A stretch of DNA of 64,000 bases from a virus: positions 21,515-85,514 of the IMG/VR virus record IMGVR_UViG_3300044729_002487; one strand, 5' to 3'. The notes beneath the pieces are model-generated. The model saw only the letters and a list, made by a program, of their open reading frames with translations. It did no database searches and was not told where the DNA came from. Numbering within the stretch: the first letter of the stretch is position 1; each line of letters starts with the position of its first letter. Positions 847 to 58,099 of this stretch are shown here, in pieces. Made by a program: the position numbers and the translations under genes.

Positions 847-3666
847 ATGAGTTTAGCTGAATGGATGGTGGAAAGTATATTAAATGAAAGCGATATCAAG
901 CAAGTCATTGTGATATACCCCGGCCGTTTTCAACCGATGGGACGACACCATGCTGCCGTGTACAAAAAATTAGCATCGCAATTTGGTAAATCAAATACAT
1001 ATATTGCAACATCTGATGTAGTTAATCCACCTAAGTCTCCTTTGAATTTCCAAGAAAAAGCTCAGGTAATGAAGGCTCATGGAATAACAAATGTCGTTCA
1101 AGTTAAGAATCCATATCAGTCATTGGAAATAGTTGAAAAATATGACCCGGCGACTACGGCAGTATTATTTGCGGTCGGTAAAAAAGATATGGCGGAAGAT
1201 CCTCGATTCCGAGTAGGCGCAAAAAAGAATGGAGAGCCATCTTACTTTCAATATTATGATGAAAACAAAGACAATTTACAACCATATGGTAAGCATGGTT
1301 ATCTAATAGTTGCACCACATGTGGATATTCAGATTCCTGGTTTTGGTGAAATGTCTGGAACAACTCTGCGTCAGGTATTAGCTTCTGCAGATGAAAAAAC
1401 ATTTAAAGATGTGATGGGATTCTATGATCCAAAAATACATGACATGCTTAAAAAAAAGTTTGAATCTTTAAAGTCTGAAACGGTTGTACAAACCAATACA
1501 GCAAACGAAACCGTTGTATTTAGTAAGAATTGGTGGTCAAAATTGATTGTAGAAGGACGTTACGATAGTTTAGTTACTACATTATCGCGAGACATTGTCA
1601 CTCAAATGAAAAGCCGTAAAGGTACTCGTAATTATGAAGTTTCATTTGATGTTGATAGAGGTGATAATACTGCCGAAATTGATTTGGTTGTCAAATTTAA
1701 ACCACGCCGCAATTGGGAATTTGCATATGAAACCAAAGGATGGACGGATGGTGAAATGATGGAAATAACATTAACGTTTAATCCAGCTGCTTTTCCAACA
1801 TCATATAGTAATCTTATTCCAGAATTAAAAGAAACATTACGGCATGAAGTTGAACATGTGGCTCAAATGCATTTTCAAGATATGAAAATGATCGAACCAA
1901 AAACAAAAGCCTTTTATCAGTATTTGTTAGCTCCTCATGAGGTAGCAGCATTTACTCAAGGTTTATATAAAAGAGCAAAAACTAAACGCGTTCCAATTGA
2001 CATTGCAATGGAAGAATGGTTTGATGAAAATGTACGAAATTTCTCACCATCGCAAAAATATAATCATTGGAACATTGTGAAATCGGCTTGGTTGGAGTAT
2101 GCTCATAAACATATACCAACTGCGCAATATAGCGACGAATTAACCGAAGGTATTGTTTCGGATACCGTAAAAAAATATAGTGCCAAGTTATCTGATAAAT
2201 ACAAAGACTTTGTTAAGCGATTGAAAATTGAAGGTAACGAAACAAAAGAAGCGTATCATAAAATCGTAGATGCAGTTGTTAACGGAAAGGAATTATCAAA
2301 AGAAGAGCGAAAAGAAGTTGGAGAACAACTCAAAGACGTTCTTAAATTGATAGGATTTACTGCGGCATCTATACTACCAGGCGGTATCATTTACTTGTTG
2401 TTAACGCGAGTAACTAAATTGAAACGGCATTTAGTACCATCCGCATTTTTAGAAAACCAAAACCCAGATAATATGATTAAATTAAAACCTTTGTTAGTTA
2501 AAGAAGCAAAAGCAAATACACATTTAACGCATTTAGAAGAATTGATTTTAACTCAAGGCCGCGACGGTTATGATTTAGCTCGGTCATTCTTATTAGAACT
2601 GATTAAAAATCTTAAAGGTAATTCCAATAACAAAGTTAATACCACTATCAAATGGGACGGAGCACCTGCAATCATATCAGGCGTTGATCCAGCTTCTGGC
2701 AGATTCTTTGTAGGTACAAAGTCTGTGTTTAATAAAGAACCTAAACTTAACTTTACAAATGAAGACATTGATCGTAATCATGGCGAAGCACCAGGATTAG
2801 TTGATAAATTGAAAAGAGCTTTAGCATACTTACCTAAATTAGGTTATAAAAATATTATGCAAGGCGATTTCATGTTTGACGATTCCACATTGAAAACTCA
2901 GACAATTGACGGTGTTAAACATTATACATTTAAACCAAATACAATTACATATGCAGTAGAAGCTGATTCGGATTTAGGACGTCGTATTTCTAAAGCAAAG
3001 TTTGGTATTGTATTTCATACCGGTTATAAGAACTTACAATCCGGAGCAGAATTTGGAGTTAGTGTATCAAATATAAGACAAAATCCGGATGTTTGGTTTG
3101 ATGATGCATTCTTTAAAGATACTACCGGTACGGTATTGTTAACTGATAATGAAGCCAAAGAGGTTGCTCGATTAATTAAAGAAGCAGATTCATTGAAAGT
3201 CGATTATCGCTCAATTCCATCAGAACTATTGAATACATATATTAATAGCGAAATACGAATTGGTCAGTTTTTAGATTCACCTGATAAATCATATGATGCA
3301 TTTTTAAAATGGTTACAACTTCGTAATGACAAAAACATTGATAAATTGAAATCATTGGCTGGTAAAGAAAAAGCATTAAATGCAGCTAAAGAACAAATGA
3401 AATCGGTCACTGATAACAAACAAAACATTGTGAATGCATTTAAGGTATCAAAATTGTTAGCAGAAGCTAAGATGATATTTGTGCAAAAATATAACAATGC
3501 TGTTTACAATACAAAACATTTTGTTGACGATGGCCAAGGAGGTTTACGAGTTTCAAATCCAGAAGGATATGTAGCAGTAGATCATATCGGTAACGGTATT
3601 AAATTAGTAGACCGATTAGAATTCTCTAGAGCCAATTTTGCCATGGACAAAGGCTTTACTAAGTAG
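847..3666 (+). CDS. Multidomain protein: HxGH-type nucleotidyltransferase-like + HExxH domain + LETM1-like segment + DUF6267/RNA-ligase-like domain
   Basis: Motifs: YPGRFQPMGRHH and MSGTTLR; LRHEVEH; EERKEVGEQLKDVLK...ILPGG; HLTHLEE, KWDGAPA, EGYV and KLVDR. Confidence 0.65.
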   Translation: MSLAEWMVESILNESDIKQVIVIYPGRFQPMGRHHAAVYKKLASQFGKSNTYIATSDVVNPPKSPLNFQEKAQVMKAHGITNVVQVKNPYQSLEIVEKYDPATTAVLFAVGKKDMAEDPRFRVGAKKNGEPSYFQYYDENKDNLQPYGKHGYLIVAPHVDIQIPGFGEMSGTTLRQVLASADEKTFKDVMGFYDPKIHDMLKKKFESLKSETVVQTNTANETVVFSKNWWSKLIVEGRYDSLVTTLSRDIVTQMKSRKGTRNYEVSFDVDRGDNTAEIDLVVKFKPRRNWEFAYETKGWTDGEMMEITLTFNPAAFPTSYSNLIPELKETLRHEVEHVAQMHFQDMKMIEPKTKAFYQYLLAPHEVAAFTQGLYKRAKTKRVPIDIAMEEWFDENVRNFSPSQKYNHWNIVKSAWLEYAHKHIPTAQYSDELTEGIVSDTVKKYSAKLSDKYKDFVKRLKIEGNETKEAYHKIVDAVVNGKELSKEERKEVGEQLKDVLKLIGFTAASILPGGIIYLLLTRVTKLKRHLVPSAFLENQNPDNMIKLKPLLVKEAKANTHLTHLEELILTQGRDGYDLARSFLLELIKNLKGNSNNKVNTTIKWDGAPAIISGVDPASGRFFVGTKSVFNKEPKLNFTNEDIDRNHGEAPGLVDKLKRALAYLPKLGYKNIMQGDFMFDDSTLKTQTIDGVKHYTFKPNTITYAVEADSDLGRRISKAKFGIVFHTGYKNLQSGAEFGVSVSNIRQNPDVWFDDAFFKDTTGTVLLTDNEAKEVARLIKEADSLKVDYRSIPSELLNTYINSEIRIGQFLDSPDKSYDAFLKWLQLRNDKNIDKLKSLAGKEKALNAAKEQMKSVTDNKQNIVNAFKVSKLLAEAKMIFVQKYNNAVYNTKHFVDDGQGGLRVSNPEGYVAVDHIGNGIKLVDRLEFSRANFAMDKGFTK

Positions 3667-12629: not shown

Positions 12630-12787
12630 TTCCAGATAGATCATGGCAACAATTTATTAAAGCCAAAGAAAATCAAAATTTACCATTGCAAGAGCAAAAA
12701 AGGAAATATGCAGACGAACGAAAACGTTTTGAACAGCAAAGAGCATTCGTCAATTCTGGATTATTCATGCAAGGACTAAAAAAATGA
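12626..12787 (+). CDS. Small hypothetical protein (53 aa, below the ORF track cutoff)
   Basis: MIPDRSWQQFIKAKENQNLPLQEQKRKYADERKRFEQQRAFVNSGLFMQGLKK; ATGA overlaps at both ends; AAAGGA upstream. Confidence 0.65.
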   Translation: MIPDRSWQQFIKAKENQNLPLQEQKRKYADERKRFEQQRAFVNSGLFMQGLKK

Positions 12788-13389
12788 GTAAGCAATTATT
12801 AGTAGATTATACATTGTTTGAAGTATCGCCTCAACAAATAAATGAGTCATTAAATAATAATGGTGGCCGTTTAATTGTTAATGGTGTATTGCAACGAGCA
12901 GAAGCTAAGAATCAAAATGGACGTATCTATCCTAGAAACATATTAATGCGCGAAGCAAACAAATATGCTGATTCATTTATTAAAGAGCGTAGAGCGTTAG
13001 GAGAATTAGATCATCCAGATTCATCCGTTGTTAATTTGAACAATGTATCTCATAACGTATTAGATATGAAATGGCAAGGAAATGACCTTGTTGGTACAGT
13101 TGAGGTATTATCTACCCCAGCTGGTAACATATTAAAAGAACTGTTCAAAGCAGGAATAAAACTAGGGATTTCGTCACGTGGAATGGGTTCGGTTAAGGAA
13201 GTTATGCGTGAAGGTGAAAATACTGTTGAGGTACAAGCTGACTTTGAACTTATTGCATTTGACTTTGTATCAAATCCATCTACTCATGGAGCATTTTTAT
13301 CACCAGTAAATGAGTCAGTTAACAGAGTGGTTGCAGATAAATATGCAAATGTTAATACGCTTATTTCTAACATAATTAGGGAGTTTTAA
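12784..13389 (+). CDS. Prohead maturation protease (T4 gp21-like)
   Basis: KNQNGRIYP, ALGELDHP, VSHN, LGISSRGMGS, FDFVSNPSTHGAF. Confidence 0.95.
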   Translation: MSKQLLVDYTLFEVSPQQINESLNNNGGRLIVNGVLQRAEAKNQNGRIYPRNILMREANKYADSFIKERRALGELDHPDSSVVNLNNVSHNVLDMKWQGNDLVGTVEVLSTPAGNILKELFKAGIKLGISSRGMGSVKEVMREGENTVEVQADFELIAFDFVSNPSTHGAFLSPVNESVNRVVADKYANVNTLISNIIREF

Positions 13390-13650: not shown

Positions 13651-14193
13651 ATGAATTTACAAAAACGATATGCGCAATTATTTGAAGGTAAACTTCGAAG
13701 TAATGATAAAGCCTTATTAGCAGAAGGTGATATGACAAGACAATATGACGGATTTATTGTATCTTCGGTAGATAATAAACTAAAATATAAGTTCCGTTAT
13801 ATGAAAGGTATACGAAATAATAAAGTAGAAGATGTAGCTATAGCAGATGTAATGAAAAAGACTGGAAAGCCTCGTTCATACTTTTGGGTTACTGGTGGTA
13901 TTAAAAAAGGTCAATGGGATCAAACTAAAGCAGAAATATTAGAAACTCGTATTAAAGAAGCTAATGAAATTCCATTACCAGAAGATATAATAAAAGATGG
14001 CATGGATGAAGTTAATCGTGTAATCGATGAACTACGTGATTTAGAACAGACTGTTATGTCATCTATTGAAATGTATCAAGAAGAAACAGGTGATTTACGA
14101 TTTGAACAAATTTTAAATCAAGGCGCTCGTTACATTCAATCTGCAGAACGCAATTTAGAATATTTACATAAAATGTTAAAAAGGAATCTCTAA
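13651..14193 (+). CDS. Putative internal head protein (MNL..Y..LF...SND..LL.E leader)
   Basis: Leader shared with the ORFs at 44910 and 52440. Confidence 0.6.
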   Translation: MNLQKRYAQLFEGKLRSNDKALLAEGDMTRQYDGFIVSSVDNKLKYKFRYMKGIRNNKVEDVAIADVMKKTGKPRSYFWVTGGIKKGQWDQTKAEILETRIKEANEIPLPEDIIKDGMDEVNRVIDELRDLEQTVMSSIEMYQEETGDLRFEQILNQGARYIQSAERNLEYLHKMLKRNL

Positions 14194-14194
14194 T

Positions 14195-14965
14195 ATGAAA
14201 TCGTGGGAACAACAATTAATGCGACATATCCTAAACGAAAAGTTTTTAGGAGAAGACGAAAAACCAGAACTGCGAAAAGAAGATAAAAAAGCATTTTTGG
14301 AGGCAGTTGCTAATTATCATCGTTTAGGTGAAATGGTATATGCTAAACGTGGTTTGAAAGAGGTTACTAAAACTGTACAAGGCATTGTTGAAAAAGCCGA
14401 AGCACTAACACTTCAAGAATCTGAGCATTGGTTTGACAATGTTACGGTATCGCGCCATATGAAACAATTGAAAGAAGCTTATAAGGTGTTTGAAAAAACA
14501 GCTGGTGAGATGTCTGGTCTGCAACAACGGTTAGAAGCAGCGTATGATGATATGGGTTCTATTTTAGGACGTTATTATAAAGTCGGTAATTCATTAAATG
14601 AAGATGATTATCAATATACAGCTGGCGTAGATGATGAAGGGCCTGCATTAGAAGAAGATACTTATACAGCTGGTGTAGATGACGAAGGTCCTGCATTAGA
14701 AGAAACTGCTAGAAAAAAAAAGTTATCGCGCTTAAACGAAGGCACTGATTATACGTTTTCGGGTACAGATAAATTCATGGATCGAGTTGCAGTCAACGTG
14801 TTTAAAAAACACGGCATCGGTCAGTCTAAGTTGAATCGTGAATATGATGCAAATGAGGGCATTGTTGAATTTACAGTAAATCTAGAAGATGCGTTAGTTA
14901 ATAAAATTAGTAAAGAGCTTGAAACGGTTGATAGAGGTAAGGGAGAATATGGCGGATATTATTAA
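14195..14965 (+). CDS. Hypothetical head-module protein
   Basis: 256-aa ORF with leader ending HILNE; contains tandem YTAGVDDEGPALEE. Confidence 0.6.
   Translation: MKSWEQQLMRHILNEKFLGEDEKPELRKEDKKAFLEAVANYHRLGEMVYAKRGLKEVTKTVQGIVEKAEALTLQESEHWFDNVTVSRHMKQLKEAYKVFEKTAGEMSGLQQRLEAAYDDMGSILGRYYKVGNSLNEDDYQYTAGVDDEGPALEEDTYTAGVDDEGPALEETARKKKLSRLNEGTDYTFSGTDKFMDRVAVNVFKKHGIGQSKLNREYDANEGIVEFTVNLEDALVNKISKELETVDRGKGEYGGYY
14615..14704 (+). repeat. Intragenic tandem duplication, 48-bp period (YTAGVDDEGPALEE x2)
   Basis: tatacagctggcgtagatgatgaagggcctgcattagaagaa and tatacagctggtgtagatgacgaaggtcctgcattagaagaa differ only at synonymous positions. Confidence 0.9.
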
Positions 14966-14974
14966 TATAAAACA

Positions 14975-15006
14975 TTTGGTACTTTGAAATAAAGTTATTA
15001 TATTTA
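14975..15006 (+). promoter_or_regulatory. Bacteroidota-type promoter for bS21
   Basis: TTTG 14975-14978, N20, TATATTTA 14999-15006. Confidence 0.7.
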
Positions 15007-15029
15007 AAGAGTTATTAATAAAAAAGTAT

Positions 15030-15284
15030 ATGAGTAAAATAGAAAAACGAATCGATCACATTATCCCAGGACAGACTCTGGGTGTTAAAGTTACTAAAAC
15101 AAAAAGATTTCCAGAAGGCGACGTTAATGGAGCAATTTTAAAATGGAAACGAATGGTAAAGGATGCGGGTGTATTGGATGAAGTTAAAGACCGTCAGGAA
15201 TTTAAAAAGAAGTCAATCGCTAAGCGTGATCAATTAAGTAAAGCCAAATATATACAAAAGATTCAAAGAGAAAATAATTTCTAA
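15030..15284 (+). CDS. rpsU: Phage-encoded 30S ribosomal protein bS21
   Basis: GDVNGAILKWKRMVKDAGVLDEVKDRQEFKKKSIAKR matches the bS21 pattern (ALKxFKR...E.R.R..F.KPS..RR); C-terminal KAKYIQ resembles Bacteroidota bS21. Confidence 0.85.
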   Translation: MSKIEKRIDHIIPGQTLGVKVTKTKRFPEGDVNGAILKWKRMVKDAGVLDEVKDRQEFKKKSIAKRDQLSKAKYIQKIQRENNF

Positions 15285-15306
15285 AAAAATCTTAAAAAAG
15301 TTTTCC

Positions 15307-15444
15307 TAATTCGGTGGTTTAAACTCCTCGTGCAATATATATTATTGTAACATGATACTACGTTCCAATACGTAGTCACTCAAATATTTTTATACTATCT
15401 ATTAAGATTTCAAATAATCTTACTTCCGAATTAAATACGAGGAG
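15307..15444 (+). promoter_or_regulatory. Structured leader of the scaffold/major capsid operon with anti-SD
   Basis: CTCCTCGT 15324-31 is complementary to ACGAGGAG 15437-44 (SD). TAATTCGG 15307-14 pairs with CCGAATTA 15426-33. Hairpins ACTACGT/ACGTAGT and TAAGATT/AATCTTA. Confidence 0.6.
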
Positions 15445-15452
15445 CAAATCAA

Positions 15453-16313
15453 ATGAGAGATTTATTAAAAGAAGCTATTGCTGACGCAAAAGCCGTAAGG
15501 GAAACTGCACTAGCTAACGCAAAAATTGCATTAGAAGAAGCATTCACTCCAAGACTTCAAAGCATGCTTTCTGCACGTTTAGCAGAAGAAGAAGAAATGG
15601 AAGAGCCTGAAATGACTGAAGAAGAAGAAATGGACATGGAAGAGCCTGTTGCCGAAGGTGATGAAGAAGATTACATGGCAGAGGAAGAGGAAATGGAAAT
15701 GGAAGAAGGTGAAGACATGGAAATGGAAGAGCCTGTTTCTGAAGAAGAAGAGATGGATGCTGAGTTAGAAGAAATTCTTCGCGAACTTGAAGGTAGCGAT
15801 GAAGAGGAAATGACTGAAGAAGAAGAAATGGAAGAGCCAGTCGCTGAGGGCGAAGAGGAAGAAGAAGTTTCTATCGAAGAAGTAATTCGTGCTTTACGTG
15901 AAGAAGAAGAAATGGAAGAAGAGCCAGTAACTGAAGAAGAGGAAGCTCCGGAAGCTGAAGCTGAATTGGAAGAAGCTATTCGAGTTATCAAATTCTTAAA
16001 GTCTAAATTGAATGAAGTTAATCTTCTTAATGCAAAATTGTTATTCTCTAACAAGTTGTTTAGAAATTATCCGTTATCTGAAGCTCAGAAAATGAAAGTT
16101 ATTGAAAACTTCGACCGAGCTAAATCAGTACGAGAAGTGAAATTAGTGTACGGTACAATTGCCGAATCATTAAAATCACCAAAAACAAAACGACCAATGG
16201 TCAAAGAAAGCTATGCTTCAAAACCAAGCCGATCTACAGCTCCTAAAAAAGCTATCCTTTCTGAAGGAACTACATTGGCAGCACGTTGGAAAAAATTAGC
16301 TAATTTAAAGTAA
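15453..16313 (+). CDS. Prohead core/scaffold protein (gp22-like position)
   Basis: Extremely Glu-rich, directly upstream of the major capsid gene, strong SD. Confidence 0.8.
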   Translation: MRDLLKEAIADAKAVRETALANAKIALEEAFTPRLQSMLSARLAEEEEMEEPEMTEEEEMDMEEPVAEGDEEDYMAEEEEMEMEEGEDMEMEEPVSEEEEMDAELEEILRELEGSDEEEMTEEEEMEEPVAEGEEEEEVSIEEVIRALREEEEMEEEPVTEEEEAPEAEAELEEAIRVIKFLKSKLNEVNLLNAKLLFSNKLFRNYPLSEAQKMKVIENFDRAKSVREVKLVYGTIAESLKSPKTKRPMVKESYASKPSRSTAPKKAILSEGTTLAARWKKLANLK

Positions 16314-16335: not shown

Positions 16336-18063
16336 ATGAATTTGAATTCTTTATTACCTCATGATGCTCAAAGTACTCAAAACAAAGTTGCTATCGCTTT
16401 AGAAAAGAAGTGGCAACGTACAGGTCTTTTAGAAGGACTTGATAATGAGGTTGAGCGCAGAGGAATGGCGGTTCTATTAGAGAACCAAGCAAAACAATTG
16501 GTAACAGAAGCTAACGCAACTTCTACTTCTGCAAATGCTGAAGAGTGGGCTGGTGTTGCTTTACCATTAGTACGTCGTATCTTTGCTGAAATTGCAGCTA
16601 AAGATTTCGTTTCTGTACAACCTATGAACCTTCCTTCTGGACTAGTATTCTTCTTGGATTTCAAGTATGGTACCGCTCAGCAAGTAAAAGGATCTACCGC
16701 TGGTGGTAATGATTTTTTAACTGGCCAAGGACGTAAGTCTCAAGGTGATTCAGTATTTGGTATTACTGATGCTGGTGGTCTTGGAACTGAGGCAGCTGGT
16801 GGAACTGCTCCATCCGAAGGTCTTTATGGTGCTGGACGTTTTGGTTATACAATCAATGACGTGACATCATCTACTTTCACATTGGCTAACTCTGTAACAT
16901 CTGCTCGTACAGGATCTGTTGCAGTTGGTACTGGTGTATTCTCAAACGGTGGTAACTTAACAGGTGCTAGATTTGATTATGTTACTAACTACAATTCAGA
17001 ATTATCTGCATCAGTAGTTTCTACCGGAGCTGGACCATTTACTATCTTATCAATTCCTACCGCATCATTGAGCAATCCTGACTTGAATGGTCTTCGTGCA
17101 TTCAACGTACAAGGTACTAACTTAGATGCTGTATATCCTGAATTCACTCGCCTTTCTAAAGGAAAAGGTCATATTGAATTCTTAGTTGAAGCTGATAGCG
17201 ACTTGAATGCAGTAACAGTAATCTACCAAAAACAACCAGGTGCTGCTAGCCGTGGTGATTTTGAAGATCCAACTGCACTTACAAATAACGTTAAAGCTGC
17301 TTATTTAGATATCCCAGAAATTAACTTGGAACTTCGTTCTGAAGCAATCGTTGCTAAGACTCGTAAGTTAAAAGCAATCTGGTCTCCTGAATTCGCTCAA
17401 GACCTTAACGCATACCACTCAATTGATGCTGAAGCTGAATTAACTTCTATGTTATCTGAGTACATCTCCCAAGAGATTGACCTAGAGATCTTAGACATGT
17501 TGATCCAAAATGCTCAGACAGTCGATCGTTGGTCTGCTAAAATTGGTTTTGAGTGGTCTGCCGCTTCTAACTCATTCGTTCAGTCTAATGCTACTGCTCA
17601 AGCATACAACCAAGGAACTTGGTTCCAAACATTAGGAACTAAAATCCAGAAAGTAAGCAACCGTATTCACCAATTAACAGTACGTGGTGGAGCAAACTTC
17701 TTAGTATGTTCTCCATCTGTAGCTACTATCCTTGAGTCAATCCCAGGATATGCTGCTGATACTGATGGTGATAAAATGCAGTTTGCAATGGGTGTACAAA
17801 AAGTTGGTGCTATTAATAATAGATTCCAAGTTTATAAAAACCCATACATGACTGAAAATGTAATCCTTATGGGTTATAGAGGATCTCAATTCCTTGAAAC
17901 AGGTGCTGTATATGCTCCATATGTTCCGTTGATCATGACTCCATTAGTGTACGATCCTAACAACTTTACACCAAGAAAAGGTGTTATGACTCGTTACGCT
18001 AAGAAAATGGTTCGTCCAGAATTCTACGGAAAAGTATATGTTTCTGCATTGGATACCATCTAA
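16336..18063 (+). CDS. Major capsid protein (T4 gp23-like)
   Basis: LLENQ, PLVRR, VSVQPMNLPSGLVF, AKTRKLKAIWSPEFAQDL.AYH, YAPYVPL, GVMTRYA. Confidence 0.97.
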   Translation: MNLNSLLPHDAQSTQNKVAIALEKKWQRTGLLEGLDNEVERRGMAVLLENQAKQLVTEANATSTSANAEEWAGVALPLVRRIFAEIAAKDFVSVQPMNLPSGLVFFLDFKYGTAQQVKGSTAGGNDFLTGQGRKSQGDSVFGITDAGGLGTEAAGGTAPSEGLYGAGRFGYTINDVTSSTFTLANSVTSARTGSVAVGTGVFSNGGNLTGARFDYVTNYNSELSASVVSTGAGPFTILSIPTASLSNPDLNGLRAFNVQGTNLDAVYPEFTRLSKGKGHIEFLVEADSDLNAVTVIYQKQPGAASRGDFEDPTALTNNVKAAYLDIPEINLELRSEAIVAKTRKLKAIWSPEFAQDLNAYHSIDAEAELTSMLSEYISQEIDLEILDMLIQNAQTVDRWSAKIGFEWSAASNSFVQSNATAQAYNQGTWFQTLGTKIQKVSNRIHQLTVRGGANFLVCSPSVATILESIPGYAADTDGDKMQFAMGVQKVGAINNRFQVYKNPYMTENVILMGYRGSQFLETGAVYAPYVPLIMTPLVYDPNNFTPRKGVMTRYAKKMVRPEFYGKVYVSALDTI

Positions 18064-23835: not shown

Positions 23836-24852
23836 ATGTATTTTGGAAATTCATCATCTGACTTTGGCTTCCTACCTCCTAATTTTAAAGGAGATGTTCA
23901 AGTATTTTATCCAACCGGAATAACAGTATCTGCTACTCAGAACTGGCAAAACTGGGCCAAGCCTAAAGGCGTTTCAATGATATATATGATGTGTATTGGA
24001 GGCGGAGGTGGAGGTGGTGGTGGTCATACCTCCGCTAATGGTTCTACACGCGGAGGAGGTTCTGGAGGAGCATCTAGTGCTTTGACTACATTAATACTTC
24101 CTGCTTTGTTAGTTCCTGATGCATTGAAAATTGCGGTTGGTTTTGGAGGACAGGGAGGAGCCGCATCTAGTAACGGTACCTCAGGTAATCCATCTTATAT
24201 TTCATTAGGTTCTGCATTAACGAATGGGACAGCTATTCCAAACATGATATTAAGAGCAAATGGTGGCGGTAACGGTATTGCTGGTACTGGTGCAGCTGGT
24301 GGTGGTGTATCGACAGGAGGTGCAGTTACTACAATTGCGAATTTAGGACCTATAGGTAAATTAGGTATGTTTTCGAATAATGGTACAGCTGCAAATGCAG
24401 GTTATGCCGGCATCGGTGGTAACGCTGGTGGAGCTCAGACTGGGGCTGTAGGAGCGTCAGTAACAACTGTATTTAATACATTTCCATTGCATGGTGGAGC
24501 AGGAGGTGCTGGTGTAGGTACCGCTGCTAACACCGGATTTGCCGGAGGTTCAATTTCATTGCAAGCGGCAGTAGATTATGAGGGAGGGACAATGACTCCT
24601 GCGTCAAATATCATACCAGCTGGAACTGCGGGTAACGACACAGTCGCTGCCGGAAACGGAAGTGCCGGTATTAAATCATTTCGTCCATTTTTAAATACAG
24701 GAGGATCTGGAGGCGGTAGTGCTTCAGGCCAAGTTGGAGGACAAGGAGGTCCTGGTGGATATGGTTGTGGCGGCGGCGGCGGCGGTGGCGGTACTACCGG
24801 AGGTCGTGGTGGAGCTGGCGGAGAAGGATTAGTCGTAATAATCAGTTGGTAA
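23836..24852 (+). CDS. Glycine-rich domain protein (fibre-associated)
   Basis: WAKPKGVSMIYMMCIGGGGGGGGG...GGAGGEGLVVIISW. Confidence 0.75.
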   Translation: MYFGNSSSDFGFLPPNFKGDVQVFYPTGITVSATQNWQNWAKPKGVSMIYMMCIGGGGGGGGGHTSANGSTRGGGSGGASSALTTLILPALLVPDALKIAVGFGGQGGAASSNGTSGNPSYISLGSALTNGTAIPNMILRANGGGNGIAGTGAAGGGVSTGGAVTTIANLGPIGKLGMFSNNGTAANAGYAGIGGNAGGAQTGAVGASVTTVFNTFPLHGGAGGAGVGTAANTGFAGGSISLQAAVDYEGGTMTPASNIIPAGTAGNDTVAAGNGSAGIKSFRPFLNTGGSGGGSASGQVGGQGGPGGYGCGGGGGGGGTTGGRGGAGGEGLVVIISW

Positions 24853-24855
24853 GTT

Positions 24856-25833
24856 ATGATATTTGAAAATTCTGATACTGCATTTAATTTTTTACCGGCA
24901 ATGCACCGATCCAATGTGCAAATGTTCCTACCTAATTCAAATGCTGCGACCCAATGGCAACGTTGGCGCAAACCTAAAGGCGTTACAATGATTCATATGT
25001 TATGTATCGGAGGAGGCGCCGGCGGTGGAGGAGGTCAATCCGCGGCAGGTAACAAAGGCGGTGGAGGCGGAGGAGCATCTGGCACAATTGCATCTATCAT
25101 AATACCTGCAATATTTTTACCAGATTCATTATGGGTTATAGCAGGAGCAGGAGGCAAAGGCGGCGCGGCTGCGACAAATGGCACAGCTGGTTTAGGAAGT
25201 TATATATCATTATCATCCGGCGTTACAGCTGGAACATCAATTCCTAATATTATTTTATTCGCAAATGGCGGAATCCAAGGAACGTCTGCAAACCCGGGAG
25301 GAGCAGGAAGCGCACCCGCAGTTACTACAATCGCCGCATGCGGTCCATTAGCTAAATTAGGATTTATTCCAAATGTGGGAAACGTTGCTAATGCTAGTAT
25401 AACAGGTTTAGCTGGAACGGCTGGTGGATCATCAACACTTCCATATACGCCCGGCATAACGACCGGTGCATGGAACGTATTGCCAATAACAGGCGGTACA
25501 GGCGGTGGCGGAGGAACTAATGCAGCTGCAGGCCCTGGTGGTACCATAACATTACAAGCAGCTACGGATTTCGAAGGTGGCGGAACATATCTCGCCCTTA
25601 ACACGTTAACGGCTGGTAATCCTGCAGGAGGTTTAGATGGTAACAACGGAATACGGTCATTGAAACCATTTTTAAATACCGGAGGAACAGGCGGTGCAGG
25701 ATCACCATCGGGAACGGGTGGTAAAGGCGGCGACGGTGGTTATGCCTCCGGAGGTGGAGGCGGTGGAGCTGGTGTGACTGGAGGACGTGGTGGTAATGGC
25801 GGCGACGGTATTGTAATTATTACATGTTGGTAA
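24856..25833 (+). CDS. Glycine-rich domain protein, tandem paralog
   Basis: WRKPKGVTMIHMLCIGGGAGGGGG...GGNGGDGIVIITCW; colinear with the previous gene. Confidence 0.75.
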   Translation: MIFENSDTAFNFLPAMHRSNVQMFLPNSNAATQWQRWRKPKGVTMIHMLCIGGGAGGGGGQSAAGNKGGGGGGASGTIASIIIPAIFLPDSLWVIAGAGGKGGAAATNGTAGLGSYISLSSGVTAGTSIPNIILFANGGIQGTSANPGGAGSAPAVTTIAACGPLAKLGFIPNVGNVANASITGLAGTAGGSSTLPYTPGITTGAWNVLPITGGTGGGGGTNAAAGPGGTITLQAATDFEGGGTYLALNTLTAGNPAGGLDGNNGIRSLKPFLNTGGTGGAGSPSGTGGKGGDGGYASGGGGGGAGVTGGRGGNGGDGIVIITCW

Positions 25834-31216: not shown

Positions 31217-31546
31217 ATGACTGAAAAAGAATTAAGACGCATTATTCGAGAAGAAGTTAAAAGAAAATTATTATCAGAAGCCGATGTAATTCCTGTTGGA
31301 CCAGATGGTCAAGAAATTAGCGATCCTAAGGTTATTAAAAATCTTAACATGGCATTAAAAGCAATTGGCGGAAACATTCGTGGAAAAATCATTGATATGA
31401 TTGAAGATCCGACAGCCGTGAAAGATCTTTCGAATACATCTCAAAAAGCAGCGGTAATGGCGGCTATGGCAATTGCCTTTGGTATTACCGGAAAAGAATT
31501 TGCGCAGATAGTATCAAAAATAAAAGCAATACTACCAGCTGAATAA
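31217..31546 (+). CDS. Putative internal head protein (start revised to MTEKELRR)
   Basis: SD AAAGGA; leader MTEKELRRIIREEVKRKLLSE. The track start at 31118 crosses the terminator. Confidence 0.6.
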   Translation: MTEKELRRIIREEVKRKLLSEADVIPVGPDGQEISDPKVIKNLNMALKAIGGNIRGKIIDMIEDPTAVKDLSNTSQKAAVMAAMAIAFGITGKEFAQIVSKIKAILPAE

Positions 31547-31992
31547 TGATTAAGTTGAAATCTATATTGTCTGAAATTTTGCTCGAATCAGAGTTAACGA
31601 CATATGGCGATTTAAAACAGCTTATTAAAATGATTAAATTAAAACAAAAAGGTGGTACGATTGTATCAAAAGGCGTAGAAGTAGGCGTTGATACACTACT
31701 AGGATTTTTACCAGGTGCAAATTCAGCAAAAACGTTTTATGATTTTTTTAAAGCAGCTACAAAGAAACCGGATACTAAAAAAACTAAAACATGGTTAGAT
31801 AATTTAGATATTGATGATCAGGTTTCTGCTATTGTAGATGACACTGTAGAAAATGGATTTCTTCAAGATTTAGCAGCATCTATAGAAAGTGAATCAGATA
31901 CTAAAGAGTTAGAACCTGATTTTAATATGAACAAAAAGCTTCAGGATTACCTAGCAGACAAATATGATAAACGTACAGTTACGATGAAATAG
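31546..31992 (+). CDS. Putative internal head protein
   Basis: Leader MIKLKSILSEILLE. Confidence 0.55.
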   Translation: MIKLKSILSEILLESELTTYGDLKQLIKMIKLKQKGGTIVSKGVEVGVDTLLGFLPGANSAKTFYDFFKAATKKPDTKKTKTWLDNLDIDDQVSAIVDDTVENGFLQDLAASIESESDTKELEPDFNMNKKLQDYLADKYDKRTVTMK

Positions 31993-45168: not shown

Positions 45169-45705
45169 ATGAAATTGAAAACATTACTTCGTGAAGCCAA
45201 TGAAAATCCAATGTTAAAAGAATTGGAGCAACGTTTGAAATCACATGACTGGTGGTATCAATATAGCGATGATCATAGATATTGGGTTCGAGGTGGACAA
45301 GAAATGGATGCTATACGAAAACTAGTTGCTCAGATTAATGAAGCTGGTTTGGAAAAAGAAGGTGAAGCAATTTGGAAAAAAACAGCACCAGATGATTTTA
45401 AATCATGGTATCCTAAAAAATTAAAGGAGGCAACTCATCCAATCGGTTCATTAGGTCGTGACATGAGTACTACACCTAACCCAAATATATCGCGCGCGGA
45501 GTATGAAGCAGATGTTAAGCTTTGGTCATCTAAAGCTGTAGAGTTTGAAAAGATAAAAAAAAATCTTGAAAGTCGTTTAAAGCGTACTAAAAACCCGAAT
45601 CATAAAGAAACGTTAGAAGGCGAAATTGAATACGTGCAAGACCAAATTGATACGTTTGAAGGCATGGTTTATGACCTGCGACGCATTATAAAAAATATAA
45701 AATAA
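45169..45705 (+). CDS. Putative internal head protein (start revised to MKLKTLLRE)
   Basis: HDWWYQYSDDHRYW domain; internal KLKE-A site. Confidence 0.6.
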   Translation: MKLKTLLREANENPMLKELEQRLKSHDWWYQYSDDHRYWVRGGQEMDAIRKLVAQINEAGLEKEGEAIWKKTAPDDFKSWYPKKLKEATHPIGSLGRDMSTTPNPNISRAEYEADVKLWSSKAVEFEKIKKNLESRLKRTKNPNHKETLEGEIEYVQDQIDTFEGMVYDLRRIIKNIK

Positions 45706-54311: not shown

Positions 54312-54956
54312 ATGAGTTATCTAGTAGCAAATTTACCACCTGTACAATGCTATGTACGTAAGGAGTACCTATACGATTTTCAGTCAGGTGTAGGCGAATT
54401 TGAACCTTGTTATTGGGTATCTGTAAAATCGATAAAAGGTAAAGCATTATACTTTGAATCATTGTTAACAAACTATGGAGCATTGTATGATAAGTTACCA
54501 TTATCTGCATATGTCTGGAAAACAGAATTAACGGAAAAACAATTGCCATTGGATTATATTGAGATATGGGATGCCTTTTCATATAACATTTCAGTAATTA
54601 AAAAACAAATGTTATCCGGATTGCAATGTAAAGTATACATGAAGGACCGTGCATTATATGACGGCGAGTATATGTTTACGATTGATTCATGTCATTCAGA
54701 ACCAAATGAATTAAATGTATCATTGTCAGAGACTCCCAATGAACATAAATCATTTAACATTATCAAATTAGATAACGGGCAATTTGCTGCTCAACCAAAT
54801 AACAGAGTTTTATTTTACGATCAATCATTAACACCTAATGGTGTAAACAAACCTGACTTTAAAGTATCTACACGCGAGTTCTTTTGTGAAAATGGAGCAA
54901 AATGGACGGCTGGCGATGAAGATAACTTTTTTTACGAAATTAATGAAAAAGATTAG
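54312..54956 (+). CDS. Phage hypothetical protein
   Basis: LVANLPP..CYVRKEYLYD, GALYDKLP, EHKS, NGQFAAQPNNR. Confidence 0.65.
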   Translation: MSYLVANLPPVQCYVRKEYLYDFQSGVGEFEPCYWVSVKSIKGKALYFESLLTNYGALYDKLPLSAYVWKTELTEKQLPLDYIEIWDAFSYNISVIKKQMLSGLQCKVYMKDRALYDGEYMFTIDSCHSEPNELNVSLSETPNEHKSFNIIKLDNGQFAAQPNNRVLFYDQSLTPNGVNKPDFKVSTREFFCENGAKWTAGDEDNFFYEINEKD

Positions 54957-54984
54957 GAGAATTGAAAAATAGTTATTATATTTA
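54953..54984 (+). promoter_or_regulatory. Bacteroidota-type promoter for the queD/queE cluster
   Basis: TTAG-N20-TATATTTA with the shared internal TGAAAAA. Confidence 0.6.
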
Positions 54985-55007
54985 TATAAATTTTAAAACA
55001 AAAAGTT

Positions 55008-55349
55008 ATGACCAAAGAAAGAGAGTTCAAATTCAAAGATGTTGAGTTAGCAATTAATTTTAAGAAAATTCCTTCGTATGATCAAGAGTATATTCGTACG
55101 ATGTTTTATGAAACCGCATTAGACCGATCTGTCAAGCATACCGGTATTGGTTTCAATGAATTTTATCCAGATTCAGCTAACTTTACAGTTTTTGATTCTG
55201 AACAAGCAATGCATAATGCAATGAGTGAATATGCTAATCCATATAAGTATACGGCATCACATCGTTTACATGGTAAGAAATATTTCTTAGCTTGGACATA
55301 TGATTATAATCGAGCAAATGCAGTTGAACATATAAAGGAGTTATATTAA
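55008..55349 (+). CDS. Hypothetical protein
   Basis: 113-aa ORF coupled to queD. Confidence 0.55.
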   Translation: MTKEREFKFKDVELAINFKKIPSYDQEYIRTMFYETALDRSVKHTGIGFNEFYPDSANFTVFDSEQAMHNAMSEYANPYKYTASHRLHGKKYFLAWTYDYNRANAVEHIKELY

Positions 55350-55813
55350 TGGCAAAGTTCAAGTCAACAAAATTATTTGATGGTTACTCTGCATGCTTCC
55401 GACAATGGAAAGCGGATGGTACTCATTGTAGATTTTTACATGGATATGCTGTTTCTTTCCGCGTATGGTTCGAAGGTGATTTAGATCATCGCAATTGGGT
55501 ATTTGATTTTGGTGGAATGAAACGTGCAAAAAATCAAATTAATGGAATGTCTCCTAAAGATTATTTTGCGTGGCTATTAGATCATACTACGATTGTTGCT
55601 GTTGATGATCCATACTTAAAGACATTTGAACAAATGCATGAAGATGGCATTATCCAATTGCGAATATTAGCAAACACCGGTTGCGAAAAGTTTGCAGAAC
55701 ATTTATACAATGTAATTAATATATTCTTATTACATGAAACCGAAGGTAGAGTAAAAGCAGTTAAAGTAGAAGTTTACGAACATGAAAGAAACTCAGCAAG
55801 TTATGGAGAATAA
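55349..55813 (+). CDS. queD: 6-carboxy-5,6,7,8-tetrahydropterin synthase
   Basis: HCRFLHGY, WVFDFG, LDHT, CEKFAE, VEVYEH..NSA. Confidence 0.88.
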   Translation: MAKFKSTKLFDGYSACFRQWKADGTHCRFLHGYAVSFRVWFEGDLDHRNWVFDFGGMKRAKNQINGMSPKDYFAWLLDHTTIVAVDDPYLKTFEQMHEDGIIQLRILANTGCEKFAEHLYNVINIFLLHETEGRVKAVKVEVYEHERNSASYGE

Positions 55814-55931
55814 AAAAAGAAATATAATAAATATTGATTTAAGTGGTTGTAAAAACATGAAGGAATGTGCTAAAGTAATTGATATGATCTCATCTGGTAA
55901 AATTAAAATCACAATAGGACAGACAAAATGA
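55803..55931 (+). CDS. Small hypothetical protein (42 aa, not in track)
   Basis: MENKKRNIINIDLSGCKNMKECAKVIDMISSGKIKITIGQTK; fills the gap and ATGA-couples to the ORF at 55928. Confidence 0.45.
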   Translation: MENKKRNIINIDLSGCKNMKECAKVIDMISSGKIKITIGQTK

Positions 55932-56122
55932 AACAAGAAACTAATGAGATGTCAATAACTCAACAAATTAAAATTGCTTTAGAAAACTCCAACTTAAACG
56001 TTGTTGTTACACCGATCATGTTTTCTCCGGACGCATTTACACCAGTACTGGGTGTGTTAGTAAAAAATGAGGATTCGAGTTATACTAAAAAATATACAAT
56101 AACGGTTAAAACAAATAACTAA
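55928..56122 (+). CDS. Small hypothetical protein
   Basis: 64-aa ORF within the operon. Confidence 0.5.
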   Translation: MKQETNEMSITQQIKIALENSNLNVVVTPIMFSPDAFTPVLGVLVKNEDSSYTKKYTITVKTNN

Positions 56123-56125
56123 ACC

Positions 56126-56500
56126 ATGAAGAATAATGACGAGACATATATATCGCTTTTTGAATATTTAGGTAAAGGCTCTGGCGGATCAAACATTGGC
56201 CGAGAAGTAACAGCGGAAGCTATTAAGCAAGGCGTTGATATCAAATATAGAATGTTACCAAAAGAAGTGCAAAAACCGGAATATAATCAAGTGCAATTAT
56301 ATCCAATATCATTTTTAGATGAATATTTTGCAAGCAAGCCTGAAATGGATCTCACACCGATTGTAAGAAGATCTGCGTTAATCCAGATATATCAACGACT
56401 TGAAGATTTAGAACTTAAGTTCAAAGCTTTATTAGATAAATTAGAAACAAATGTTACCAATAGTAATGAGCCAGATACCGATGACGAACTTCCGTTTTGA
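56126..56500 (+). CDS. Hypothetical protein
   Basis: SLFEYLGK..G..IG.EV...LYP..FL..YF; acidic DDELPF tail. Confidence 0.55.
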   Translation: MKNNDETYISLFEYLGKGSGGSNIGREVTAEAIKQGVDIKYRMLPKEVQKPEYNQVQLYPISFLDEYFASKPEMDLTPIVRRSALIQIYQRLEDLELKFKALLDKLETNVTNSNEPDTDDELPF

Positions 56501-57284
56501 TCCGCAGCCAGGAGAGCCGCGTATATTAGATTATGATAAAGTGTTACCTATTGTTGAATTGTACCGATGCGTGCAATCAGAAGGTAGTAGATTTGGAATG
56601 CCAACAATTGCAATACGAACCACCGGTTGTACACATCGATGCTTCTTTGGAGAAGGAGGTTGGTGTGATAGTTGGTATACATCTATTCATCCAGAGAAAG
56701 GTAAATTTACATTTAACGATATCATTAAGATATATGAAGAAAATCCTCAGGTTAGAGAAATGATGATCACCGGCGGATCACCGACAATGCATCCAGCATT
56801 GTTAAATGAATTAACAATTTTTGCAATGAAGAATGGAATTGTAACTACATTGGAAACTGAAGGCTCTCATTATATTGAAACTTCATTGCCAATTGATGTA
56901 ATTTCATTGTCACCTAAATTTAGTAATTCAGTTCCTGTAATTGGAGCAGTTACGCCGCAAGGTACGATTGTCGATCAAAAAATGATTGATCAGCATAATA
57001 AATTTAGATTGCATAAAGAAAACATTTCAAAAATGTTAAAGTACCATCATAATTATCATTACAAGCCAGTATGGGATGGTACTGAAGAAAATTTAAAAGA
57101 AATAGAAGATTTTCGTGTTGAGTTTAATATTCCAAAACATAAAACGTATATTATGCCGGCCGGAGATACAAGAGAAGAACTAATTAAAATGTATCCAATA
57201 GTATTTGAAATGTGTGCCGAACATGGTTATAATATGACCGGTAGAGACCATATCATTGCATATGATACAAAAAGAGGTGTATAA
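56451..57284 (+). CDS. queE: 7-carboxy-7-deazaguanine synthase (radical SAM); start uncertain
   Basis: ELYRCVQSEG..G.PTIAIRTTGCTHRC...WCDS, ITGGSP, LETEGS, SLSPK. Confidence 0.88.
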   Translation: MLPIVMSQIPMTNFRFDPQPGEPRILDYDKVLPIVELYRCVQSEGSRFGMPTIAIRTTGCTHRCFFGEGGWCDSWYTSIHPEKGKFTFNDIIKIYEENPQVREMMITGGSPTMHPALLNELTIFAMKNGIVTTLETEGSHYIETSLPIDVISLSPKFSNSVPVIGAVTPQGTIVDQKMIDQHNKFRLHKENISKMLKYHHNYHYKPVWDGTEENLKEIEDFRVEFNIPKHKTYIMPAGDTREELIKMYPIVFEMCAEHGYNMTGRDHIIAYDTKRGV

Positions 57285-57303
57285 TTTAAAAAAGGAAAAG
57301 GTT

Positions 57304-57594
57304 ATGTGGGAACCAATTGGAGATTTAATTTTATTAAAAGAACTCGAAGCACCGACTAAGTCAAAAGGTGGTTTGATATTATCAAATTCATCAGTGGATT
57401 ATATTAAAGCTGAAGTAACAGCTGTAGGGCCTGGATTGTTTACTCATACCGGTGATCGTATTCCAATGACTGTTAAGGTTGGTGACATTGTTATGATTCA
57501 TAAAAATCAGAGCGGTGAAAATAAAAAAGTTAAACTTGATGATGATACGTTCATATTAGTACACGAAGGAGACTTGTCATTAAGACAATGTTAA
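57304..57594 (+). CDS. groES: Co-chaperonin GroES (start revised to MWEPIGD)
   Basis: PIGDLILLK...TKSKGGLIL...AEVTAVGPG...PMTVKVGDIV...LVHEGD; SD AAAGGA. Confidence 0.88.
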   Translation: MWEPIGDLILLKELEAPTKSKGGLILSNSSVDYIKAEVTAVGPGLFTHTGDRIPMTVKVGDIVMIHKNQSGENKKVKLDDDTFILVHEGDLSLRQC

Positions 57595-58059
57595 ACAAAT
57601 AAACTCATGCGGAAATCAATTAGGAGTAAAAATGGAAACAATTTATTTTAGTTTAGGAATCGCCTCTGTAGTTGTTACGGTGATAGCTGTAGTAGCTGTT
57701 TGGGCAATTGTTAAGGTATTAAAATTAACAACGCAATTGCGTAATTTAGAACAGTCATGGAACCATGGCATGAATGATGTACATCGTGACATTACAATGG
57801 TACAACGTACTATCGAAAACGGTTTAGATAATCGTTTTAGAGATGTGGATTCATCTTTTGATACTTTGAGTCGAGAACTCAATGAAAGGTTTAATAACGT
57901 GCATAGAGATTTAGATACCGTCAATAGAGAATCAGAAAATCGAGCTGACCAGCTAAATCGATACATAGATTCACGAATTGATAAATTATCAGTGAATAAG
58001 AAAAAGGAAACGCTAACAGCGTAATTTAATATAACTTTCCGCATGAGTTATTTGTTTAA
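57591..58059. repeat. 24/25-bp inverted repeat bracketing one gene
   Basis: TTAAACAAATAAACTCATGCGGAAA (57591-57615) vs TTTCCGCATGAGTTATTTGTTTAA (58036-58059): perfect reverse complement except one extra A. Confidence 0.9.
57632..58024 (+). CDS. Membrane-anchored coiled-coil protein
   Basis: N-terminal TM (LGIASVVVTVIAVVAVWAIV) followed by heptad repeats; SD TAGGAG. Confidence 0.7.
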   Translation: METIYFSLGIASVVVTVIAVVAVWAIVKVLKLTTQLRNLEQSWNHGMNDVHRDITMVQRTIENGLDNRFRDVDSSFDTLSRELNERFNNVHRDLDTVNRESENRADQLNRYIDSRIDKLSVNKKKETLTA

Positions 58060-58082
58060 TTGAAAAAAAGTATTTATATTTA
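58051..58082 (+). promoter_or_regulatory. Bacteroidota-type promoter for folE-polB
   Basis: TTTG 58051-54, N20, TATATTTA 58075-82. Confidence 0.65.
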
Positions 58083-58099
58083 GAGAAATAAGTAGTAAT

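Follow-up and report, generated by a model that had tools for sequence, protein, structure and literature searches.

The stretch of viral DNA considered here, called the window below, comprises 64,000 nucleotides (positions 21,515 to 85,514) of the IMG/VR virus record IMGVR_UViG_3300044729_002487. Close to its start, an open reading frame (ORF) with an ATG start codon and no competing long ORF encodes a protein of 939 amino acids, P0001, at 847..3666 of the plus strand. P0001 comprises a nucleotidyltransferase (NT) domain, an HExxH domain, a small helical module and a DUF6267 domain, and it carries a short leader at its N-terminus and hydrophobic-x-Glu sites at the boundaries of its modules (Table 1). 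From the comparison of these sites with those of homologous proteins, both fused and stand-alone, we hold with moderate confidence that P0001 would be a capsid-targeted polyprotein: a precursor docked by its leader, cut at the module boundaries by a protease of the T4 gp21 type, and ejected together with the DNA.

Table 1. Features of P0001 and of the structural genes downstream of it (a slash marks the position of a cut site; res, residues of P0001).
Feature	Position	Strand	Remarks
Candidate capsid-targeted polyprotein P0001	847..3666	+	939-aa ORF
N-terminal leader, res 1-14, MSLAEWMVESILNE/S	847..888	+	candidate capsid targeting propeptide, ends L-N-E
NT domain, res 15-215	889..1491	+	HxGH-superfamily fold
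Junction 1, KLIVE236	1540..1554	+	directly before GRYD of HExxH domain; kept in 110/117
HExxH ('HEVEH') domain, res 237-432	1555..2142	+	HEVEH at 1843..1857; conserved Glu in PHEVAAF 1933..1953
Junction 2, ELTE434/G	2137..2148	+	low pLDDT
Small helical module, res 435-537, ending ..VPSAFLE536	2149..2457	+	hydrophobic helix res 499-522 at 2341..2412
Internal leader, MIKLKPLLVKE553	2473..2505	+	before AKANTH (DUF6267 start); resembles stand-alone HExxH leaders
DUF6267, res 554-939	2506..3663	+	KWDG 2650..2661, EGYVAV 3562..3579, KLVDR 3601..3615
Terminase	7090	+
Portal	8688	+
Prohead protease, T4 gp21 family	12784..13389	+	Peptidase_S77, 99.6 bits vs 27, 2e-28; phrog_207 1e-54
Two scaffold-like ORFs	14195..14965, 15453..16313	+	4.7 and 4.2 [LI]xE per 100 aa
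Major capsid protein, gp23 family	16336..18063	+	Pfam Gp23, 263 bits, 6e-78
Sheath	28839	+
Tube	30629	+

Four modules in one open reading frame

The first module is a nucleotidyltransferase with the fold of nicotinamide mononucleotide adenylyltransferase (NMNAT) and phosphopantetheine adenylyltransferase (PPAT), the sequence evidence for this assignment being weak. The Pfam family CTP_transf_like is matched with 16.2 bits, under its cut-off of 21, and the PHROG family 'cytidyltransferase' at 1e-7. In the AlphaFold model this part has a predicted local distance difference test (pLDDT) score of 80-90 and shows a Rossmann-like nucleotidyltransferase fold. The HxGH nucleotidyltransferase-like domain proposed for this region in an earlier note is thus borne out in its fold but not in its motif: the sequence GRFQPMGRHH at 922..951 is non-canonical, P-M-G-R-H-H having a Gly in place of the first His. 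The residues G32, H34 and H35 are invariant across 117 relatives, and cyanophage homologues have HAGH or TTGH at this site. An ISSTxxR-like sequence, MSGTTLR, is found at 1351..1371.

The second module, noticed earlier as an HEVEH domain, belongs to a real family: an exhaustive HMMER search brought up 471 representative clusters at E<=1e-3. H333, E334, H337, Q340 and E365 are invariant among 52 aligned sequences, and this pattern of H-E-x-x-H-x-x-Q followed by a Glu about 30 residues downstream is, as far as an alignment can tell, a gluzincin-like signature. No Pfam family was matched by the domain. Its hidden Markov model found in the PDB, as best match, a stretch of BepA with E 0.76-1.6, which is not significant, and a protein atlas returned unnamed viral clusters and the weak leads LPD23 (0.88), SprT-like (0.84) and Peptidase_M78 (0.84). 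The structure matches of a 545-residue N-terminal model fell on other parts of it, and a zincin fold is putative for this domain. In other long proteins the partners of the HExxH domain are NUDIX, AAA_33 kinase, HAD phosphatase, NT5C, and Pol-beta plus CTP_transf-like domains. In Flavobacterium phage vB_FspM_immuto_2-6A, gp088 (L043 236..2956) is a protein of 907 amino acids annotated as NMN adenylyltransferase and encoded upstream of the terminase, as in the window; it has an NT motif at about residues 290-330, a second HExxH at about residue 640, and a C-terminal HExxH domain at residues 693-880 after VMAE/GRYD.

The third module is small and helical, and its hydrophobic helix reaches a Kyte-Doolittle maximum of 1.99 over 19 residues. 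Its 24 short homologues include stand-alone proteins of 92-120 amino acids as well as C-terminal copies on other proteins, a distribution that marks it as a genuine mobile module. The label of LETM1-like segment that had been attached to it fails, the match to LETM1 (PF07766) being noise (10.9 bits vs a cut-off of 25.3, E 0.34).

The C-terminal module is covered from residue 557 to residue 935 by the complete Pfam model of DUF6267 (PF19782; model positions 1-376 of 376, E 3e-101, 339.8 bits vs a cut-off of 27). Its KWDG, EGYV and KLVDR motifs are invariant, KWDG (residues 602-605) in 14, 46 and 117 aligned sequences, and KWDG can be read as the motif I lysine sequence K-x-D-G, the structural ranges behind this assignment being precise to about one residue. 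The AlphaFold model of the domain (pLDDT 78.8) gave nothing in Foldseek at E<=1e-3, and the best solved structures found by phmmer and profile searches, a spidroin and the ribosomal protein S25, are not meaningful (E 0.2-0.75). The domain named earlier is therefore secure as DUF6267, and only weakly ligase-like.

These four modules, which the earlier note had taken to be unrelated, are indeed joined in one ORF, but two of them belong together. The NT gene directly follows the DUF6267 gene in 201 of 553 phage records, and fusions in the reverse order, DUF6267-NT, are found in P0120, a relative of P0001, and in S-PM2d138. Since the two genes are adjacent so often and occur as fusions in either order, the cargo is not a random assembly, and the NT and DUF6267 modules are, on these comparative grounds, a conserved functional pair. 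On one viral contig a stand-alone DUF6267 with the leader MKKFKLYFEDYLELLEE/GKA is followed by an NT gene of 179 codons starting MRTFREYFED. Of the arrangements in related phages that the earlier note had asked about, stand-alone forms, adjacent genes and reverse-order fusions are found; the complete architecture of P0001 was matched in the phage collection by none of 472 matching records at 80% query coverage. In the re-annotated genome of S-PM2, S-PM2d138 (L005 2947..4722) unites DUF6267 and NT in one protein of 591 amino acids. A table of 2010 lists two genes at this place (T4-GC71 and T4-GC190), so that the cluster assignments of both families are mixed between phages. The chemistry of the pair would most likely consist of two nucleotidyl-transfer steps on a nucleotide or on a nucleic-acid end, for which an adenylyltransferase that feeds or complements a ligase-type, lysine-adenylylating enzyme is proposed as an example. 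As to the biological role, RNA-end repair or a counter-defence linked to nucleotides or nicotinamide adenine dinucleotide (NAD) is a guess.

Leaders and junction sites

The motif [LI]xE occurs 11 times in P0001. Shuffled sequences contain it 8.3 +/- 2.6 times, 21% of them reaching 11, and with 1.17 occurrences per 100 aa P0001 matches the average of the window ORFs; an enrichment across the whole protein was therefore rejected. Because the count is at chance level it carries no signal by itself, and it is the placement of the sites that matters. At each of the five boundaries a hydrophobic-x-Glu site is indeed present, as had been claimed, and three of the five are strict [LI]xE sites: ILNE14/S, LIVE236/G and LTE434/G. 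The first of them closes the N-terminal leader, which falls within the 10-19 residues of T4 propeptides; its position 4 is not aromatic as in T4, and a Trp is found at position 6. A coil is predicted between the leader helix (residues 3-12) and the strand at residues 19-25. The second, KLIVE236/GRYD, is the same cut-and-start point as that of stand-alone HExxH proteins. At the third, the relative P0004 has IHE/G, and the site is missing in P0005, which has no next module.

Structure prediction places these sites outside the domains. In the N-terminal model the pLDDT is below 50 at residues 212-219, 230-232, 234-237, 426-442 and 503-545, and so it is in the DUF6267 model over its first 18 residues (residues 543-560). 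The stretches that bear the sites are presumably flexible, and the earlier concern that the sites might be buried inside domains does not apply, as they lie in low-pLDDT linkers of the AlphaFold models.

The retention of the sites was followed through the fused family, which comprises at least 1348 proteins (516-1644 aa) at E<=0.001 among 7999 candidates scored; the best 120 and the query, 121 in total, were analysed. Among these 121, NT and DUF6267 are constant and the middle is variable, giving nine architectures: NT-VDDGPRY-KOW-DUF in 61, NT-VDDGPRY-DUF in 38, types of NT/VDDGPRY with the small hydrophobic module in 13, types with HExxH in 6, the reverse order DUF-NT in 2, and NT-DUF in 1. 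The alignment contains 117 sequences and omits P0018, P0119, P0120 and P0121, which are truncated or permuted. In it, [LI]xE ends at the column of residue 14 in 112 of the 117, at that of residue 236 in 110, and at the column before DUF6267 in 115, where the P1' residue is Ala in 109; the flank of the residue-236 column has a conservation of only 0.50. The junction before DUF6267 could be located in 119 of the 121 proteins, with Glu at P1 in all 119 and Leu (64), Ile (53) or Val (2) at P3. HExxH domains inside other long proteins (n=57) are likewise preceded by such sites, P1 being Glu in 48 and P3 Leu or Ile in 51.

The same sites close the leaders of stand-alone homologues. The T4 genome (NC_000866) provides the reference, its ipII and ipIII starting MKTYQEFIAE/A and its ipI MKTFKEF...ITE/A. 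The T4 propeptides have 10-19 residues, and in the IPIII leader residues 4 and 7 serve targeting and residues 8 and 10 processing, according to the review of Black's work (PMC9026906), which also reports that Asp at P1 stops processing in T4 and leaves targeting intact. Of the 120 listed DUF6267 proteins of short length, 103 carry a leader that places [LIV]xE right in front of (A/G)(x)KA-NTH. This leader has 15-17 aa in 98 cases and Phe, Tyr, Trp or Leu at position 4 in 100; the other proteins are 5 leaderless ones (MAKA or MGKA), 2 whose leaders escaped the pattern, and 10 that are truncated or long-extended. Typical leaders of this group are MKNFKLYYEQYQLIEE/ATKA, MRNFKQFHQDSQLLTE/AKA and MKTYKQYFEAYKLIEE/A. 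For HExxH, the alignment holds the 51 of 85 short matches in which the match covers the domain start, several of the 34 left out having similar leaders. A leader is present in 48 of the 51 (median 10 aa) and missing in 3. In the 48 leaders P1 is Glu in 43 and P3 is Leu or Ile in 39 and Val in 6, and P1' is Gly in 39 of the 51. Leaders such as MIKLKPLLTE/GKYD and MIKLKPILTE/GRYD match the internal MIKLKPLLVKE/AKA of P0001. Judged by their sequences, the stand-alone leaders of three modules are thus of the kind of the T4 capsid targeting sequence (CTS), and they end where the module begins in the fusion.

The resemblance of the internal MIKLKPLLVKE to the N-termini at 31546 and 45169 was rightly noticed, all three being present. 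The ORFs at 31546..31992 (MIKLKSILSE/I..) and 45169..45705 (MKLKTLLRE/A.., the start of which in the ORF list is a TTG at 45139) have leaders of the stand-alone HExxH type and no Pfam or PHROG match, and they may encode further capsid-targeted cargo. Similar starts are seen in the DUF6267/NT neighbourhood of other phages: the P-loop protein gp129 of Pelagibacter phage HTVC008M (L002 6673..7335) begins MIPFILKE/GLYD, and the kinase g130 of S-CRM01 (L004 6622..9087) begins MISFDQFLSE/K. The S-CRM01 kinase is cited as virion-detected in a passage of PMC10665884.

Virion detection, head proteins and genome setting

Homologues of the NT module have been found in virions. According to the portions consulted of Sullivan et al. 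(2010; PMC3037559), the 'citidylyltransferase' T4-GC190 was detected in virions of S-SM1 and not in those of S-PM2. Table 3 of PMC10665884 reports the cytidylyltransferase gp154 in S-CREM2 virions with 3 peptides, and the authors of that paper comment on the 'frequent detection' of proteins of this kind in virions of cyanophages. The two proteins detected by mass spectrometry, SSM1_190 (MKKFSAFLNE/AERS) and S-CREM2 gp154 (MKNFSSFLTE/ADEK), both have a leader of 10 residues with Phe at positions 4 and 7, Leu at 8, Glu at 10 and Ala at 11. The DUF6267 protein SSM1_189, which carries no proteomics flag, is leaderless, as are the DUF6267 proteins of S-WAM1, S-CRM01 and P-HM1 and the fused DUF6267-NT protein S-PM2d138, the cluster of which was not detected in S-PM2. 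In these very few cases the presence of a leader appears to track virion detection.

The head genes of the window provide indirect controls on the specificity of its protease. A prohead protease of the gp21 family is present in the same phage, and in the major capsid protein LVTE58/A aligns with LTE65/A of T4 gp23, which we take to be cut after residue 65, and has the same L-V-x-E/A form as LVKE553/A of P0001. The cleavage of T4 gp23 by gp21 is stated in the annotation of the T4 record. The scaffold-like ORFs exceed the window mean of 1.17 [LI]xE per 100 aa and are rich in this motif like T4 gp22, which has 16 in 269 aa. ORFs between protease and capsid gene (13651..16313) have 3.3-4.7 [LI]xE per 100 aa and leader-like starts (MNLQKRYAQLFE/G, MRDLLKE/A), and their products are probably scaffold or core proteins that the protease degrades, as with T4 gp22, gp67 and gp68.

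The gene content of the window identifies the source genome as that of a myophage. The record is an IMG/VR contig of 85.5 kb, estimated to be about 47% complete, with one DUF6267 copy. Flavobacterium phage vB_FspM_immuto, whose capsid protein is 55% identical along its whole length, and Microcystis phage Mel-JY01 are the cultured phages nearest to it by this protein. The plus strand carries every large ORF of the window. The P0001 gene is located about 3.4 kb upstream of the block of terminase, portal, protease and capsid genes, and replication and 7-deazaguanine genes come after the tube gene. The latter, at 54312..58768, are queuosine-precursor genes (QueD-like, QueE-like and GTP cyclohydrolase) with a gene of a 'ferredoxin' family, a set that points to modified bases in the DNA of this phage. 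A search of the window for tRNA genes found none. Its GC content is about 0.35 except at 23836..25833 (0.48), the sole GC-rich stretch, which holds two neighbouring paralogous ORFs (338 and 325 aa) whose products start in a similar way (MYFGNSSSDFGFLPPNF.. and MIFENSDTAFNFLPAMH..).

Upstream of the P0001 gene the coding strand has no T4 late-promoter motif TATAAATA. The 18 matches of this motif in the window are all on the minus strand (reading TATTTATA on the plus strand) and are not enriched, 13.4 +/- 3.8 being expected by chance. Their positions include 3676, 7078, 23342, 28475, 28800, 30596, 32041, 44886, 48839, 54979 and 58071, many just 5' of plus-strand genes. The single orientation and intergenic position suggest that TATAAATA/TATTTATA could be a phage promoter-like motif.

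A candidate injected precursor and its alternatives

In the reading favoured here, the leader (residues 1-14) would dock the precursor onto the scaffolding core of the prohead, the protease encoded at 12784..13389 would cut after Glu14, Glu236, Glu434, Glu553 and perhaps Glu536, and the separate modules thus formed inside the head would exit along with the DNA when infection starts and be active in the host without delay. The earlier note had advanced this core idea of one packaged and cut precursor, which fits the comparative data; the LETM1 label and the view of an unrelated cargo that came with it do not. Packaging, cleavage, ejection and biochemical role are all deduced here from comparison.

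Several observations weigh against this interpretation. The number of [LI]xE sites in P0001 is not above chance, and two of its boundary sites are not strict, with Phe (FLE536/N) and Val (LVKE553/A) at P3; P0001 is one of just 2 of 119 proteins with Val at P3 of the junction before DUF6267. The MKxF/Y pattern seen in T4 and in the cyanophage NT proteins is missing from the P0001 leader, whose residues 3-12 are predicted to form a helix (pLDDT 51-69) that might belong to the fold. The conserved L-x-E could also be N-terminal structure of each domain, against which the few leaderless natural variants argue. A hydrophobic helix like that of the small module is unusual in T4 internal proteins. The leaderless, site-less DUF6267-NT fusion of S-PM2 indicates that the pair can work as an uncleaved cytoplasmic protein. 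With regard to the virion data, the S-CREM2 authors caution in the relevant passage that purification may have carried non-structural proteins over (PMC10665884).

The strongest alternative, still an unlikely one, is that P0001 is an uncleaved cytoplasmic enzyme of several domains, in which NT and DUF6267 share a substrate and the L-x-E sites and the MIKLK leader are relics of fusion. It is favoured by the adjacency of the two genes in 201 of 553 phage records and by their fusion in both orders, by the S-PM2 fusion with neither leader nor junction site, the cluster of which escaped detection in S-PM2 virions, and by the chance-level site count in P0001. In the portion consulted of the supplement of PMC3037559, no proteomics flag is attached to T4-GC71, the cluster to which DUF6267 of P-HM1 and of S-PM2 belongs; this too speaks for a cytoplasmic protein and against a packaged one, although those cyanophage versions that were examined have no leader. 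Relics would be expected to decay, however, and 110-115 of the 117 relatives retain the sites inside otherwise variable linkers, which disfavours this explanation. In unrelated architectures, too, such sites stand before the HExxH domain in 48 of 57 internal cases, the P0001 gene lies directly upstream of the head gene block, and NT homologues that bear a leader occur in virions.

It is still less probable that P0001 is packaged and that its own HExxH metallopeptidase domain, not the prohead protease, then does the processing, be it inside the head or once injected. The invariant H-E-x-x-H-x-x-Q with its downstream Glu and the weak zincin leads (BepA, E about 0.8; SprT-like and Peptidase_M78 clusters, 0.84) would agree with this, and zincin-like peptidases have been proposed as processors of polyvalent proteins in the accessible text of Iyer et al. 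(2017; PMC5512222). Self-processing is nevertheless disfavoured, since the HExxH motif is missing in 115 of the 121 family members and the junction before DUF6267 is still present in 119 of 121. Moreover, the sites fit the T4 gp21 type and the predicted site of the phage's own capsid protein, and stand-alone HExxH proteins themselves bear a leader with such a site. Least probable of all, with a very slight chance, is an internal start at Met543 (ATG 2473) that would give a separate leader-bearing DUF6267 beside the long product with no cleavage at that junction: MIKLKPLLVKE resembles a complete N-terminal leader, and among the six closest relatives P0002, P0003, P0004 and P0006 keep MIKLKP and P0007 has MKYLE, but no purine-rich or Shine-Dalgarno sequence precedes this ATG, many window genes having AGGA or GGAG, and most fused relatives have no Met there and still keep L-x-E/AKA.

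If P0001 is indeed a packaged precursor, a broader and more tentative proposal can be made for marine T4-like phages, namely that a portable cassette of CTS leader and gp21 site would load interchangeable enzyme modules, singly or chained, into the head for injection as a ready-made toolkit of nucleotide or RNA-end repair or of anti-defence. The modules so carried would be NMNAT-like and ligase-like nucleotidyltransferases and a zincin-like domain, and in relatives NUDIX, P-loop kinase, HAD phosphatase and Pol-beta domains. Proteins of the family abound in ocean metagenomes, and in that case an injected enzyme cargo would be a widespread and overlooked part of marine phage infection. Until now the T4 CTS has been viewed mainly as a feature of the internal proteins of T-even phages; the same leader logic would here apply to enzymes of distant marine T4-like phages and, inside fusions, to each of the module boundaries. 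It would explain the recurrent 'cytidylyltransferases' of cyanophage virion proteomes, place DUF6267 and the large unnamed HExxH family in the phage head, and make injected phage proteins predictable from sequence alone. The cyanophages S-SM1 and S-CREM2 and the Flavobacterium phage immuto offer cultured systems for this idea.

Much of this is already known in kind: the targeting leaders of T4, gp21 processing, polyvalent proteins, and virion-associated cyanophage 'cytidylyltransferases'. The literature search, which covered papers available without subscription, found none that links the marine enzymes to T4-type leaders and none on leader-bearing DUF6267 or HExxH proteins or on the retention of boundary sites in fusions. 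DUF6267 was not found there by name, a query for CTS with cyanophage led only to the Black review, and for CTS or internal proteins of marine T4-like phages only work on T4 or SPN3US was found.

Among known enzymes, the NMN and nicotinic acid mononucleotide (NaMN) adenylyltransferases and PPAT have the ISSTxxR motif paralleled by MSGTTLR of P0001, and differ in the first His of HxGH, for which the P0001 family has an invariant Gly, as well as in the Pfam score of P0001, below the cut-off. The ATP-dependent ligases (T4 Rnl1, Naegleria RNA ligase, Trl1 and DNA ligase 1) are paralleled by the invariant KWDG (motif I-like), EGYVAV (motif IV-like) and K919 of DUF6267. Unlike them, DUF6267 shows no sequence match to any solved structure, and it has a long helical insert (model residues 225-341) between the putative motifs IIIa and IV.

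Head-internal proteins cut after Glu are also known from giant phages. In the ejection proteins of SPN3US and phiKZ, as described in the text consulted of PMC5694885, a gp21-related protease recognizes a motif of three residues, and gp47 has a predicted transmembrane helix comparable to the hydrophobic helix of P0001; the motif is A-x-E or S-x-E, unlike the [LI]xE found here, the propeptides often exceed 100 residues, and that text does not describe these proteins as chains of separable enzymes. Polyvalent proteins, following the accessible text of PMC5512222, are multi-domain proteins encoded beside head genes and predicted to travel with the DNA, and they combine enzyme domains for nucleotides or nucleic acids with a zincin-like HExxH domain, as P0001 does; domains of the effector type are present in P0001 as well. 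The model put forward for them is zincin processing, whereas the P0001 junctions are of the prohead-protease type and the stand-alone forms have T4-type leaders; DUF6267 and the HExxH family of P0001 are not named in that text.

A further close case is the cyanophage 'cytidylyltransferase' T4-GC190 of S-SM1 and S-CREM2, a homologous NT protein found in virions and provided with a T4-like leader of 10 residues. It differs from the fused P0001 in being encoded by a separate gene beside a leaderless DUF6267 gene, and in the consulted parts of their papers its authors draw no link from its presence in virions to a targeting leader. Close to P0001, too, is the system of the T4 internal proteins IPI, IPII, IPIII and Alt. 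They share with the stand-alone leaders described here a propeptide of 10-19 aa ending in [LI]-x-E before Ala or Gly and a hydrophobic or aromatic residue at positions 4 and 7, and both T4 and the window phage have a protease of the gp21 family and a capsid protein of the gp23 family. P0001 departs from them in its leader, which is off the MKTY/F pattern, and in the hydrophobic helix of one module; in addition, the candidate cargo of the window consists of enzymes linked into a single precursor that repeats the cut site internally.

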